NCBI GenBank assembly: GCA_963748825.1 | Contig: CAVVKN010000005.1 | Span: 27,182 to 91,181 of the forward strand | DNA: 64,000 bases | Source of the DNA: Methanotrichaceae archaeon | GTDB lineage: Archaea; Halobacteriota; Methanosarcinia; Methanotrichales; Methanotrichaceae | Reading direction: 5' to 3' | Part shown: positions 1-3,955 of the stretch, in pieces | Position numbering within the stretch: the stretch's first letter is position 1 | Layout: every line of letters begins with the position of its first letter | The notes under the pieces: model-generated | Told to the model about the DNA's origin: nothing | What the model saw: only the letters and a program-made list of their open reading frames with translations | The model's database searches: none | Made by a program: the position numbers and the translations under genes

Positions 1-1055
1 CTTTATTGTTTTGGCAGCATCAATAATAGGTTCTATTTGGCTGTGTGTTGCCCAATAATACCATTTTTTGAGGAAATCCTCCGCAAGGAGCTTATCATTA
101 AATGTCCAAAAGTCTTTCAGACTAAGCTTGAAATTGTATGCTTTGGATGTCATCAAATTCATATCTTTGAGAGAGCCCAGCTTCTCTTTTTCAGCCAATG
201 AAAGATCATTTGGATTCTTAAGCCACATATATCGAGTATTTTTTAATTCTGCATTGTGGTGCTGCTCCTCGCGACGTACTTTATCCACTGCCTCATTTAC
301 CATCTTCATAACGTGGAATTTATCAAAAGTAAGAGACGATCCAGGAAACTGTTCCGCTATTCCTGATATGAATGCAGGAGAAATATCCGAACAGAACATC
401 TCAATATTTTCCGATGCTCCATTATGATCCTCAAGGTCTTTTTTAAATGAGCTGATAACACTCGCATCTTTGCCCTCGCATACGTATAGAACTTTATTAT
501 TGTCGAAATCAACGAATAGCGACACATATTTATGAAATTATGCACATGAGGTTTCATCTACGCCTACTATTTTTACTTGAGAATGATCTTCTTTAGATCT
601 AGATTCAGGAATATAATACGACAATACCCTCCAGATCCTTGTATCATGCTCACCGATAATCTCAGCTACGGCACTAATTGACATATTCTGGGCAAAAAGA
701 AGTATCAGTGCATCCATTAGCAATGTGAAACCTGTGCTCTTCCTAGCCCATGGAACATCAATCAATCTGATTGAACCACATTTCTCGCAAATTGTGCGTG
801 GCACTCTGGCATGAATATATGCCTTAAATTGGAAAAAATTAAGGTGCCGCCATACTTTTTCCTTTGTATCATGAATGCAGTTGTTTGGATTTTTGCAATT
901 TAAACATTCAAATCTACTTCCTGGGATAAAATCGATATGAATATCCAGTTGCTTTTTAGCACTGCTGAATTCTATCGACTTGATATACCAAGGATCTTGA
1001 AGATTCAATGCAAGTTTCCCATGGAAAACCACATAAATCAAAAACAGGAGGCGAT

Positions 1056-2375
1056 CTATTCACCACCCCCGGATGGCCTATTATTGCCGGCTTTTGCCAT
1101 AGAAATGGCTCCAAGCTCACGCATAAGTGCATTCTTCCTACTGCCCTCCTTCAGATGATAAAAGGCATCCACAATTGCAGCGACCCTATCCGTTAAATGC
1201 TCTTCCTTAAATGAAGGTGCCTGGCAGGACTTATCCTGGCTCGATCTACTCTTCCTGCATTCATCTTCTTGATACAACTCCTGGTTTATAAGAAGATGAT
1301 AAATGAGACAGATGAGTTTCCTAGCAACGGCGATGATCGCTACGTTACGCTCCTTCTTTTTAATCAATCTCTTGAAGAATCTGGACAGCGCCGTCTTATT
1401 CATATTTGATATGGTCTGGGCTGCTTGGACAAGTATAACTCTGATATGCTTGGAACCCTTCTTTGTAATTCCACATTTTTTCTTCTTGCCTGCAGATTCG
1501 TTTTCTCCAGGATTGAGGCCACACCATTTTGCGATCTGGTTCGGAGTCTTAAAATCTCGGTAGTTTCCAATCTCCGACAGTATGACCGATGCAGATGTGA
1601 ATCCAATTCCTGGGATCGACATGACTATGGCCAGATCTTTGCTCTTTTGCTGAACCTTTTTCAGGACCTCAAGGCTTAGCTTCTCCATTTTGGATTCGAG
1701 ATTGTCAAGGATTTCCAGAGCATCTTTTAAGAGCATTCTGTTTGTATCATTCAGACCATTTTCGAGTGCTGATCTAATCAGGTCTTGCTTCTTCCTTATC
1801 TTTCCGGAGGGTATGCCTTTCAAGATCTCTTCGATGGGCTTCTCTTCAGCCAGACAGTCCAGGATGTATCTGCCGGACTTGCAGAAAATATCGTCCATGG
1901 TAGAACTGAGCTTAACGCCACTTGATGATAGATATTTATGAATCCGATTCCGGAACTGAGTTCGTGTCTTGACATATCCGGACCTGGCTCGCGTCATCAT
2001 CCTAAGGTCTCGGTCATCATCGGTAAATACGCGATACCTTTTGATTTGACCGTTCAAGCAAAGGGTTGCGATTCGGTTTGAGTCTTTAGAGTCGGATTTG
2101 TCATTTGGAATGGTTTTTATCTGCAACGGATTGGCTACAATTGTATCTATGGTTTTGCTCAGGGCATCATAAATCGGCATCCAATAGACGCCAGTAGCTT
2201 CAAATGCCACTTGTTCGCATTTGTTGGCAACCAGCCAGTTTCGGAATCTCTTAAGCTCGGCTTTTGTTGTACCAAAATTCTCTCGAATTGGCAGCACATC
2301 ATCGCCAGTTACTGTGGCAACGATCAAATCTTTATGGACATCTGCTCCGCAAACTCTATCTCTTCGTCTTTTCAT
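1056..2375 (-). CDS. IS110-family DEDD recombinase/transposase
   Basis: GADVHK, FEATGVYW, KSDSKD, IPGIG and GLNPGENESAG (catalytic Ser region) motifs. Confidence 0.95.
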   Translation of the reverse strand: MKRRRDRVCGADVHKDLIVATVTGDDVLPIRENFGTTKAELKRFRNWLVANKCEQVAFEATGVYWMPIYDALSKTIDTIVANPLQIKTIPNDKSDSKDSNRIATLCLNGQIKRYRVFTDDDRDLRMMTRARSGYVKTRTQFRNRIHKYLSSSGVKLSSTMDDIFCKSGRYILDCLAEEKPIEEILKGIPSGKIRKKQDLIRSALENGLNDTNRMLLKDALEILDNLESKMEKLSLEVLKKVQQKSKDLAIVMSIPGIGFTSASVILSEIGNYRDFKTPNQIAKWCGLNPGENESAGKKKKCGITKKGSKHIRVILVQAAQTISNMNKTALSRFFKRLIKKKERNVAIIAVARKLICLIYHLLINQELYQEDECRKSRSSQDKSCQAPSFKEEHLTDRVAAIVDAFYHLKEGSRKNALMRELGAISMAKAGNNRPSGGGE

Positions 2376-2390
2376 ATGCGTTTCTGCCTG

Positions 2391-2531
2391 GTATGGGCAG
2401 ATGATCTTTCCCTGATGTGGGATAATTTCCCATGCGCGTTCTAAGACGCAGTCCCGTATTCGGGGGGATCTTGGCCTGTTTCAATCACGGGATCAAGCGT
2501 CCCATAAACTTGCCGGCCTTCACTGCCCATA
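2391..2531 (-). ncRNA. putative IS110 bridge RNA
   Basis: Closing stem UAUGGGCAG/CUGCCCAUA. Internal loop carries GCAAGUUU and AUUGAAAC, matching the two flanks of the insertion site. CAUGGGAAA matches the element end. Confidence 0.75.
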
Positions 2532-2880
2532 TCCGGCTTAACGTGAACGGATAACAATATGTGGTTTTCCATCCGTCACGTGTGAGCCTCTGCCTGGGGC
2601 GCATGGTCGTTTGAATAGGTCTTCCTGCGAGAGAGTCACGGATAATAATTCAAGAAATGACATTATTAAACCTTACCCCAGGAAGTAAAAATCCTCCCGG
2701 ATGCCAAACCAGCCTATCCGGGCTGGATGCCATCCTGCTTGCTGATTTCTTGATTCCTGTCCTCGGATTTCATTTAATAGTAACTTGAGGTTAGCCACCT
2801 GAAACAGCGAAGAGCCATATCAATTTTGTAACGGCGAACATGGCAATAGCTCAAAATCGTTATCAGCAAAAATAAATTTA

Positions 2881-2965
2881 TGCGGGGAAAGGGATTCGAA
2901 CCCTTGAACTCCTGCGAGAATAGATCTTGAGTCTATCACCGTTGGCCTGGCTTGGTTATCCCCGC
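2881..2965 (-). tRNA. tRNA-Leu(CAA)
   Basis: GCGGGGA acceptor stem, anticodon arm ATAGA-CTCAAGA-TCTAT, long variable arm, GTTCGAATC T-loop. Confidence 0.95.
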
Positions 2966-3088
2966 ATTCGACCTGCCTTGGAGCAGATCGAGGATAATGC
3001 AAGCACCTCCGGGTTTATGAATCTTGCCATCCGCAGCGCCCTGCGCCCACGGGCCTCCGTCCGCCCGAAGCCCTAGCCAGCGAGTCGT

Positions 3089-3244
3089 TCACGCATCCAC
3101 GTGATTTACGCAGACCCAGTGGTAGTACCCGTGAATGCCCGTGCCCGTGACCTCGTCAAACTCTTCCAGTTCCTGGCCGCAGATCTGGCATGTCTCGCCA
3201 TCCGGCACCTCGATCTCAGCATCATTGCATAGTACAACTACCAT
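3089..3244 (-). CDS. 51-aa putative zinc-finger microprotein (absent from ORF track)
   Basis: MVVVLCNDAEIEVPDGETCQICGQELEEFDEVTGTGIHGYYHWVCVNHVDA; CxxC...HxxC; GC3-rich codons. Confidence 0.7.
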   Translation of the reverse strand: MVVVLCNDAEIEVPDGETCQICGQELEEFDEVTGTGIHGYYHWVCVNHVDA

Positions 3245-3310
3245 TCAAGTTCTCATAAGGGGCTGCAAGAGACATGAAGCTTTCGGGTAATTGAGGTATA
3301 ATTGCGCATC

Positions 3311-3544
3311 TCTCTGCCGTCTGCGGTTAGTATTCGTAGCTGACGATTTAACTGGGTCTACGGAATAAAACCACAGAGGCACAGAGGACGAACGAACGGA
3401 GACGCTATTACTGCTGATAATAAGGTAGATTTCACGTCTCTGCGACTCTGCGTCTCTGCGGTTAGTATTCGGAGCGGACAAGCTCTGGGTTTACGGAATA
3501 AAACCACAGAGTCACAGAGCGCACGGAGGACGAACGAACGGAGA
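3311..3544. repeat. two ~95-bp imperfect direct repeats built from CTCTGCGTCTCTGCGGTT / AACCACAGAG-CACAGAG palindromic arms
   Basis: Units at ~3311-3402 and ~3449-3544 share ctgcggttagtattcg...tacggaataaaaccacagag...ggacgaacgaacggaga. Confidence 0.8.
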
Positions 3545-3955
3545 TTACTTTTCTTTCGATCCGCTCTCAAACTCCTGGAACGTGCGCAGCGCCGAGGCCA
3601 GTATTTTTGTCTGGCCGATGTTAGCAGCAATGAATAACGCATCCAGGATCTCGTCCTCGCTCGCCCCCGCGCGCGCTGCTGCGCTCATGTGCACCTTTAG
3701 GCACTTGTCTGCGCCACAGCTGGCCGCTGCGGCCACGGCCAGGAGCTCCGCGACCTTGGGCTCCAGGCTTTGGGGCCGCAGGGCATAGAAGTCCTTGAGG
3801 GCGGAGAAGATCATGAACTCTGGTCGGCGGGCCATGACCTGCAGGATAAAGGGCACGATGCCCAGCATCTTTTCGGTGTCGTCGAGGATGTCCTCCTGCA
3901 GGGAGGTGCTTTGCTCCAGGAGGGCTTTGATGAGGTCTTTGTTTTCGGGTTTCAT
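3545..3955 (-). CDS. carboxymuconolactone decarboxylase/AhpD-like protein
   Basis: LEPKVAELLAVAAAA...CLKVHMSAAARAGASEDEI motif. Confidence 0.8.
   Translation of the reverse strand: MKPENKDLIKALLEQSTSLQEDILDDTEKMLGIVPFILQVMARRPEFMIFSALKDFYALRPQSLEPKVAELLAVAAAASCGADKCLKVHMSAAARAGASEDEILDALFIAANIGQTKILASALRTFQEFESGSKEK

Follow-up and report, generated by a model that had tools for sequence, protein, structure and literature searches.

Described systems and the element under study

To our knowledge, the recombinases guided by bridge RNAs or seekRNAs that have been characterised so far come from bacterial elements. In the published account of IS621, an insertion sequence of the IS110 family, a long non-coding end lies upstream of the gene and the two strands of an RNA internal loop each pair with one target half, on opposite DNA strands, and overlap at the core (PMC11208160). 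Structures of this system are available (8wt6-8wt9). The same account predicts bridge RNAs for most IS110 entries of ISfinder (PMC11208160), and one survey reports 662 archaeal IS110 recombinases (10.1101/2024.06.21.599552). Our literature search did not retrieve an archaeal bridge RNA analysed in detail. Here, we analyse an element at positions 1018-2612 of a 64,000-nt stretch of a Methanotrichaceae genome (the whole stretch is called the window). An original prediction, made from the letters of the window, had proposed that a methanogen here carries an IS110 recombinase guided by an RNA with target and donor loops. The recombinase domains, the assemblies that hold its relatives and the covariation of the guides bear this out, and the main interpretation is correct: the locus is a variant of a bridge RNA system with an unexpected natural target. 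We consider it highly probable that 1018-2612 is an intact IS110-family insertion sequence, RNA-guided through a bridge RNA, whose cognate site is ATTGAAAC at the ends of CRISPR repeats.

The other described group is that of the IS1111-type elements, whose ends carry subterminal inverted repeats of ~11-13 bp with 7-bp left and 3-bp right extensions. An upstream non-coding region is reported for only a few of them in the account cited here (PMC11187229). Two further reports connect the IS110 family with CRISPR repeats. The Thermus elements IS1000A/B have a 32-bp end segment described as identical to CRISPR repeats of T. thermophilus (PMC6352166), and Cbp1, a CRISPR-repeat-binding protein, is described as binding sites in ISC1229 of Sulfolobus (PMC10883916). 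These are likewise links between IS110-family elements and CRISPR repeats, which neither paper, in its passages on these elements, reads as RNA-guided targeting. We liken them to our element from the published descriptions; their hosts are unrelated to ours, and so are the repeat sequences.

Architecture of the element

The features of the element are as follows, with guide orientations given in the element's own direction.

1018-2612, minus strand: complete IS110-family element, 1,595 bp including one AAAC copy (2609-2612, minus strand), delimited by empty-site homologues, the open ISL3 frame and the ends of sister copies
2376-2612, minus strand: left non-coding end encoding the putative bridge RNA, 237 nt
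2390-2533, minus strand: predicted bridge RNA core inside stem P1 (2533-2523 with 2400-2390) in the minimum free energy (MFE) fold; P1 is 97% paired, with four pairs changed on both sides
2473-2518, minus strand: predicted target-binding arm, with outer stem P2 (2518-2515/2476-2473) and inner stem P3 (2505-2500/2492-2487)
2506-2513, minus strand: 5' strand of the target loop, GCAAGUUU, antisense to the core and right flank (AAACTTGC), 8/8 at the site of the window copy
2478-2485, minus strand: 3' strand of the target loop, AUUGAAAC, sense of the left flank and core, 7/8 here and 8/8 at CRISPR repeats
2426-2434, minus strand: candidate donor guide CAUGGGAAA, sense of the right-end tip and core, co-varying with the right end
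2558-2572, minus strand: inverted-repeat arm inside the left end, 15 bp (AUGGAAAACCACAUA), in the loop of hairpin 2578-2570/2552-2543
1056-2375, minus strand: recombinase open reading frame (ORF), 439 amino acids, with a DEDD/RuvC-like N-terminal domain and a Transposase_20 C-terminal domain
1018-1055, minus strand: right end, 38 nt non-coding, terminating in ...UUUUCCAUGGG
1021-1035, no strand assigned: inverted-repeat arm of the right end, 15 bp (atggaaaaccacata on the plus strand), 3 bp from the element tip and identical to the minus strand at 2572-2558
1014-1017, minus strand: target-side AAAC copy at the right-end junction (gttt on the plus strand), a direct repeat with 2609-2612; only AAA is the likely crossover core

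The element resembles IS621 in its recombinase of DEDD and Tnp domains and in the long non-coding end upstream of the gene. Its predicted RNA has an internal loop whose two strands would act on opposite strands of the target halves with an overlap at a short core, and a second region with the sense of the right-end tip and core; as in IS621, the left-end guide is hard to see. The target is a repeated genomic sequence in both cases, the repetitive extragenic palindrome (REP) for IS621. Unlike in IS621, the order of the target-loop strands is reversed: the 5' strand is antisense to the top strand of the core and right flank, and would pair with it, which differs from the IS621-type RNAs of the IS110 group. 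In addition, one long closing stem holds both loops, whereas IS621 has two successive stem-loops; the core is AAA instead of the CT dinucleotide; and the 15-bp inverted repeat, the archaeal host and the target at CRISPR repeat ends set the element apart. The likeness of the two proteins is limited to the level of the 8wt6 alignment (E 1e-8). Hence, the IS621-like architecture proposed originally stands for the target and donor loops, whereas the strand order and the single closing stem depart from it.

In other respects the element resembles the IS1111 type. The seekRNAs described for ISEc11, ISKpn4 and ISPa11 likewise have the complement of the top strand ahead of the match to the bottom strand (PMC11187229). 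The subterminal inverted repeat with a 3-bp right extension (GGG here), the 7-bp stretch before CATG on the left (AAACGCC here) and the repeated-sequence targets are IS1111-like as well. However, the perfect partner of the right-end arm lies ~37 nt inside the left end (2572-2558) and not 7 bp from the tip, and the long non-coding region is upstream of the gene (237 nt vs 38 nt downstream), unlike the downstream position typical of the IS1111 group. A tblastn search against plasmids was uninformative on placement in the IS110 or the IS1111 group, since the matches, ~31-34% identical, were all annotated as 'IS110 family transposase'.

By its domains, the element belongs to the IS110 family in the ISfinder sense, which includes the IS110 and IS1111 groups. 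It also inserts like members of this family: insertion is sequence-specific and uses a short sequence shared by target and ends rather than a generated duplication, and one non-coding end is long. This is seen in the ATTGAAAC consensus of 75 parsed sites, in the AAA(C) at both junctions and in the 237-nt left end.

Structure of the guide RNA

The minus-strand RNA at 2518-2473 reads GGCC-g-GCAAGUUU-AUGGGA(cgcuuga)UCCCGU-g-AUUGAAAC-a-GGCC, and the enclosing strands are UAUGGGCAG (2531-2523) and CUGCCCAUA (2401-2393). All loops, stems and enclosing strands that the original prediction had placed here are present in the sequence. The 147-nt RNA core has an MFE of -57.5 kcal/mol (z = -4.55), and none of 200 shuffles gave an equally good fold.

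We gathered the homologous RNA region from 105 genomes of the family, 59 of which had a DNA match, and aligned the 43 distinct versions. On these, 88.9% of the cells of a six-helix structure pair, vs 24-46% with slid partners. Twelve pairs change on both sides, and the observed covariation was reached by none of 500 shuffles. P2 pairs in 94% of cases, with a UA/CG swap in 11 sequences, and P3 in 86%, with three compensated pairs. The P5 hairpin (2450-2446 with 2439-2435) is strictly conserved and shows compensatory changes only in a more distant, second family, where P2 and P3 are also kept through such changes. The stems proposed from the single sequence are therefore supported both by the z-score and by compensatory changes in homologues.

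Among 151 sampled genomes of the class, a covariance model built from the well-supported helices (P1, P2, P3 and P5) detected the RNA in 53, including 40 of 74 from the family of the window, 11 of 67 from the second family and one of four from a third.

Target guides follow the insertion sites

In the window copy, GCAAGUUU is identical to the plus strand at 1010-1017 (8/8), and AUUGAAAC complements GTTTCAAT, of which the actual site, gtttgaat at 2609-2616, retains seven of eight positions. These matches, and the 9/9 match of the second loop given below, reproduce those first noted.

Further evidence comes from relatives. We compared 22 guide versions with 64 unique insertions (of 69 parsed) at five variable positions. 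The 3' loop strand matched its own left flank at 3.59 of the five positions, vs 1.41 for the flanks of other lineages, a difference reached by none of 20,000 permutations. The guide-target covariation expected of an RNA-guided element is thus found in the collected copies and homologues. Guide GGCUAAAAC goes with flank GGCTAAAAC in all seven copies of one genome, and CAUAGAAAG with CATAGAAAG in three copies of three. Further lineages combine UCCCUAAAC with CCCTAAAC, and GUUUAAAAC with GTTTAAAAC; in the second family, an AUAAAAC guide goes with an ATAAAAC flank. A second, distant relative lies on the contig of the window, ~19.5 kb upstream of the window start (L008:606-751, on G000 contig C5). 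Its right end, CATGCG, is matched by its donor guide AAUGCGAA, and both flanks are matched perfectly by the loop strands (GUUAGUGAAAC, 11/11, and AAACGGCGG, 9/9). The 5' loop strand fits the right flank in relatives at 9/9 positions for L008 and L084 and at 8/8 for L063, and in the second family it fits the TAAGT consensus of the 10 type-A copies having a right junction.

Judging from these alignments, each loop strand co-varies with its target half and would pair with it, the two pairings lying on opposite DNA strands, as expected of a bridge RNA or seekRNA loop. Loop strands that co-vary with flanks and ends over so many lineages amount, at the level of sequence, to natural reprogramming.

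The two strands differ in constancy. AUUGAAAC is invariant in all copies of its type while the other loop strand drifts (GCAAG, ACAAG, ACAGG, AAAGG). We found no strong signal of a right-flank preference in the AUUGAAAC lineage: the first base after AAAC was C in 10, T in eight, A in five and G in four of 27 non-CRISPR sites. The window copy carries GCAAGUUU as its 5' loop strand and the sister copies carry ACAAGUUU. By fitting the right half of the ISL3 site at 8/8 positions, the strand of the window copy may have made up for the mismatched left half, which is a plausible account of one event.

Two lineages with other guides have repeated surroundings. The seven copies of the GGCUAAAAC lineage (L048-L053 and L032, one genome) lie in a constant ~40-nt repeated context (…CTTTCTTCTGGGGCTAAAAC followed at the insertion point by TAATGGTTTTACTAGC…). 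Another lineage inserts between the halves CCCCACCCTAAA and GGATGGGG of a palindromic, repeated host sequence.

CRISPR repeat ends as insertion sites

The cognate target, ATTGAAAC (reverse complement of GTTTCAAT), is what CRISPR repeats carry at their 3' end, and the ISL3 site of the window copy is only near-cognate. The genome of the window holds five further copies or fragments of the element. Three are full sister copies, 93% identical to the window copy and with the same ends, each lying exactly after a 37-nt CRISPR repeat that ends in ATTGAAAC. They are co-oriented with the repeat and follow repeats 43, 45 and 54 of an array on contig C12. This array has 55 repeats of 37 nt with a spacing of 71-76 nt, the last one degenerate. 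Directly upstream, on the same strand, are cas6b, cas3, cas5, cas7, cas8b (TM1802), cas4 and cas1, i.e., a type I-B set. With regular repeats, unique spacers and adjoining cas genes, the locus is a CRISPR array. A fourth, truncated copy on C12 starts at position 131, just past its own ATTGAAAC, and abuts a full copy. This compound (108735-111793; L002, L005) fits an insertion into the guide DNA of the sister copy followed by loss of a 130-nt direct repeat, or a collapse in the assembly. The window copy (ATTCAAAC) and a fragment on contig C23 (ATTAAAAC) have 7/8 sites.

We then took a census of the family, in which full elements, left-end fragments and mini-elements together gave 75 unique sites. 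Without three sites of another guide type and two mis-parsed ones, 70 sites remain. A site was counted as CRISPR when its 28-nt flank recurred nearby, or when it matched a repeat family recurring in another locus. CRISPR repeat ends made up 31 of the 70 sites and other sequences 39; one repeat-like site (L131) was left out of the CRISPR count. All 31 CRISPR sites read ATTGAAA, with C next in 30, and they span at least five repeat families that have little in common beyond ATTGAAAC. In the left flanks of all 75 parsed sites, T is found 64 times at -7 and 68 times at -6, G 68 times at -5 and A 72-74 times at -4 to -2. The shared target GCAAGTTT(G/C)AAT proposed for other insertions was therefore half right: its ATTGAAAC half is conserved, whereas its GCAA half is not. 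Perfect sites mostly lie at the end of CRISPR repeats, with a spacer on the other flank.

We found no published description of bridge RNA or seekRNA targeting of CRISPR repeats, in a search that did not cover the supplementary natural-target tables of PMC11208160 and PMC11187229.

Donor guide and core

CAUGGGAAA complements tttcccatg at 1015-1023 (9/9), and across lineages the donor guide follows six variants of the right end (CATGGG, CATGTG, CATGCG, CATGGC, CATGCT and CATGCC). The search for a left-end guide used contiguous antisense matches in the 3' strand of the donor region, and a 7-9-nt match to the left-end tip occurred in only four lineages. Inspection by eye of the closing stem, the loop of the inner target hairpin, the P2-P5 stretch and a discontiguous CAU..GGG gave no candidate that co-varies convincingly. 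The left donor guide had already escaped detection by eye in the original prediction, and the antisense search did not find it either. In the second family, the 3' strand of the donor region, where such a guide is expected, is only 4 nt long. The corresponding left-end pairing of IS621 is described as discontiguous in the account of that system (PMC11208160).

The core is shorter than the 4 nt first suggested. The window copy has AAAC at both junctions. At least seven non-CRISPR sites of AUUGAAAC type (L021, L023, L044, L137, L109, L123 and L112) have AAAC on the left and AAAT, AAAA or AAAG on the right; AAAT stands at the right junction in two of the 25 CRISPR sites having one; and in the second family, the type-A copies having a right junction show AAAAC on the left in 10 of 10 and not on the right. 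Because the fourth base differs between the left and right junctions of relatives, the crossover would lie within AAA, the probable exchanged core. The C of the loop strand corresponds to the first base of the element itself.

Mini-elements and expression

Mini-elements of 83-86 bp make up 29 of the 75 parsed rows (27 without the mis-parsed L110 and L042). Each joins ~49 nt from the start of the left end to ~20 nt of the right end, with flanks like those of the full element (ATTGAAAC, AAAC); 13 lie in CRISPR repeats. Their loci (L040, L042, L044, L046, L100-L139) belong to other genomes of the family, and none was found among the copies in the genome of the window. They are mobilised by the machinery of the full element.

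RNA-library runs held 10-18% of the sampled words of the element, and four were compared with the window at >=90% likeness. Run X6 has short contigs over 2405-2527 with a word depth of ~600-2700, vs ~11 for the contigs of the ORF, and adapter letters follow after 2529. From the latter, numerous short inserts seem to stop at the 5' edge of P1. Together these contigs hint at an abundant RNA over ~2405-2529. In run X2, a CRISPR repeat (…AAGTCGTGGCCCAATTGAAAC) and the left end of a relative are joined directly in one contig (loose end at window 2598), which is compatible with co-transcription of, or read-through between, array and element. Parts of the element lack contig cover in X2, X3 and X5, from which nothing follows.

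Recombinase, boundaries and surroundings

The recombinase matches PF01548 (DEDD_Tnp_IS110) at residues 9-150 (E 1.9e-21) and PF02371 (Transposase_20) at 250-329 (E 1.6e-25), both above the curated cut-offs. Its alignments in PDB include the IS621 transposase (8wt6, E 1.1e-8) and ISCro4 (9t56, E 1.6e-6). The alignment with IS621 takes in the GxD, EATG and E-S motifs, and we take the serine of the latter to be the catalytic one. Close relatives of the protein come from assemblies titled Methanotrichaceae, Methanothrix or Methanosarcinales, and the host is therefore an archaeal methanogen.

The element interrupts an ISL3-family transposase gene, in two parts:

1-1017, minus strand: 3' portion of the interrupted ISL3 transposase gene, with two ORFs sharing a frame (Pfam DDE_Tnp_ISL3, HTH_Tnp_ISL3, Zn_ribbon_ISL3)
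2613-2663, minus strand: 5' part of the same gene, start codon at 2663-2661

Removal of 1018-2612 had been proposed to restore the ISL3 target, and this is what we observe. After in-silico deletion the frame stays open over the joint (...SQEDLFKLALNLQDPWY...), and all nine ISL3 homologues compared, taken from other genomes of the family and 78-94% identical, are uninterrupted at the site, without the 1.6-kb insert. Past the insertion site, seven of the nine read gaa(t/g/a)agg. A search of the window's own genome found no uninterrupted copy of this ISL3. Because an in-frame stop near 526-537 adds to the IS110 insertion, the ISL3 gene was, or has become, a pseudogene.

The 15-bp inverted repeat co-varies across lineages. 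It could serve as a binding site for protein, or as an additional RNA guide directed at the right end's top strand. An A/T-rich, TTTAT-like stretch in the right end, ~25 nt short of its terminus, might be the TATA box of a circle-junction promoter.

Beyond the element, ~270 nt away, there is a transfer RNA (tRNA) gene with a long variable arm at 2881-2965 on the minus strand (Rfam tRNA, 50.7 bits). At ~3290-3545 two similar stretches of ~100 nt in tandem (…gcggttagtattcg…ggaataaaaccacagag…gaacgaacggaga) were seen by eye, with a small ORF downstream.

Proposed mechanism and alternative explanations

By analogy with IS621 and the seekRNA elements, the element would travel in circular form through RNA-guided DEDD/serine recombination, with a structured RNA of ~140 nt, closed by one long stem, encoded in its 5' non-coding end. 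Since the guide corresponds to ATTGAAAC, the conserved 3' end of many CRISPR repeats, arrays contain the largest pool of perfect sites, and ~45% of the observed insertions lie in them, always along array transcription. The window copy would then be a side-insertion into a 7/8 site in the ISL3 gene, where its variant 5'-strand guide would pair perfectly with the right flank.

Several points weigh against this reading. Circle movement, RNA binding and recombination of this element are proposed from analogy, and none has been observed. As a single copy that differs from the others by 7%, the window copy may no longer be active. The expression contigs come from metatranscriptomes of relatives in metagenome-type samples; they show presence in RNA libraries, but strand, ends and level are not readable from them, and DNA carry-over is possible. 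A scan of 900-3100 with Rfam 15 (E up to 1) had no match over the RNA region and returned only the tRNA at 2881-2965 and two chance plastid matches. In the donor region, two alternative pairings or hairpins are indistinguishable (69.9% vs 64.2% paired), and in the MFE fold of the window copy the donor guide is partly base-paired. The left-end guide was not found: antisense matches to the core and left tip scored 3.83 for a lineage's own end vs 3.67 for swapped ends (36 lineages). At CRISPR sites, where the right flank is a spacer, the right-flank guide matches only the core, so that in practice eight nucleotides direct insertion. Finally, CRISPR repeats provide 55 of the 138 ATTGAAAC sites in the genome of the window, and finding three to four of the six copies in the array is therefore no more than availability predicts.

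For the same reason, i.e., because site availability alone predicts the share of the arrays, selection of the guide for CRISPR repeats is only inferred, and we hold the chances to be about evenly balanced. The end of the repeat that reads ATTGAAAC would become the 8-nt 5' handle of the CRISPR RNA (crRNA) after processing by Cas6. Tentatively, and with somewhat more doubt than belief, the lineage may have tuned its guide to the block common to CRISPR repeat families, using arrays as its main, co-oriented landing pad in different hosts and repeat types, and so parasitising and remodelling the immune memory. Insertions would then split arrays and silence the distal spacers. Read-through from the array would supply the transcript of the element, perhaps with release by Cas6, and the 85-bp miniature derivatives would share in this.

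Arrays might instead be hit only incidentally, with a guide that was selected for another repeated or safe target, or that drifted, and with neither adaptation to CRISPR nor any interplay. The availability of sites just mentioned speaks for this, as do the 39 of 70 sites outside CRISPR repeats and the sister lineages that target other repeats, e.g., GGCTAAAAC in its conserved 40-nt context or the CCCCACCCTAAA/GGATGGGG palindrome. We nevertheless think it unlikely: the guide is the one block common to at least five otherwise different repeat families, it is invariant in the AUUGAAAC-type copies while the opposite loop strand drifts, and the insertions are co-oriented with array transcription, one RNA-library contig even joining a repeat to the left end.

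It is very improbable that the ATTGAAAC of the element is a captured fragment of a CRISPR repeat, or that its ends are misplaced, with the protein picking the target and the folded 5' end serving as leader or promoter. The 32-bp end of IS1000A/B, described as identical to Thermus CRISPR repeats (PMC6352166), can be read as such a capture, and the 15-bp inverted repeat might be a protein-binding site. Yet only 8 nt are shared here, exactly on one strand of the internal loop; lineages with other targets carry a matching other 8-10 nt at the same position of the RNA; the opposite loop strand matches the other flank in antisense; and the boundaries are fixed by empty sites. That the loop matches of the window copy arose by chance at a low-specificity insertion has next to no probability, for although they are short (8 and 7 nt) and the GCAA part is unique to this copy, the site census, with its left-flank consensus over 75 parsed sites and a permutation test of 0/20,000, refutes it.

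Implications

Bridge RNA and seekRNA recombinases are new genome-writing tools. The archaeal RNA class described here, which 53 of the 151 sampled genomes of the class contain and in which nature has reprogrammed dozens of guides, is a ready data set for their targeting rules. Its mixed architecture, with guide order and end repeats like those of IS1111 elements together with an upstream RNA and a single closing stem, bears on the evolutionary shifts of the RNA between element ends. As read from the insertion sites, 8 nt of one guide plus the core appear to suffice in vivo, which bears on off-target behaviour, and the non-autonomous mini-elements would show the system acting in trans in nature. 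In Thermus and Sulfolobus, bridge RNA targeting might also account for the so far unexplained links of IS110 elements to CRISPR repeats. The present case, in which a mobile element aims its guide RNA at CRISPR repeats, could explain why insertion sequences occur inside arrays.

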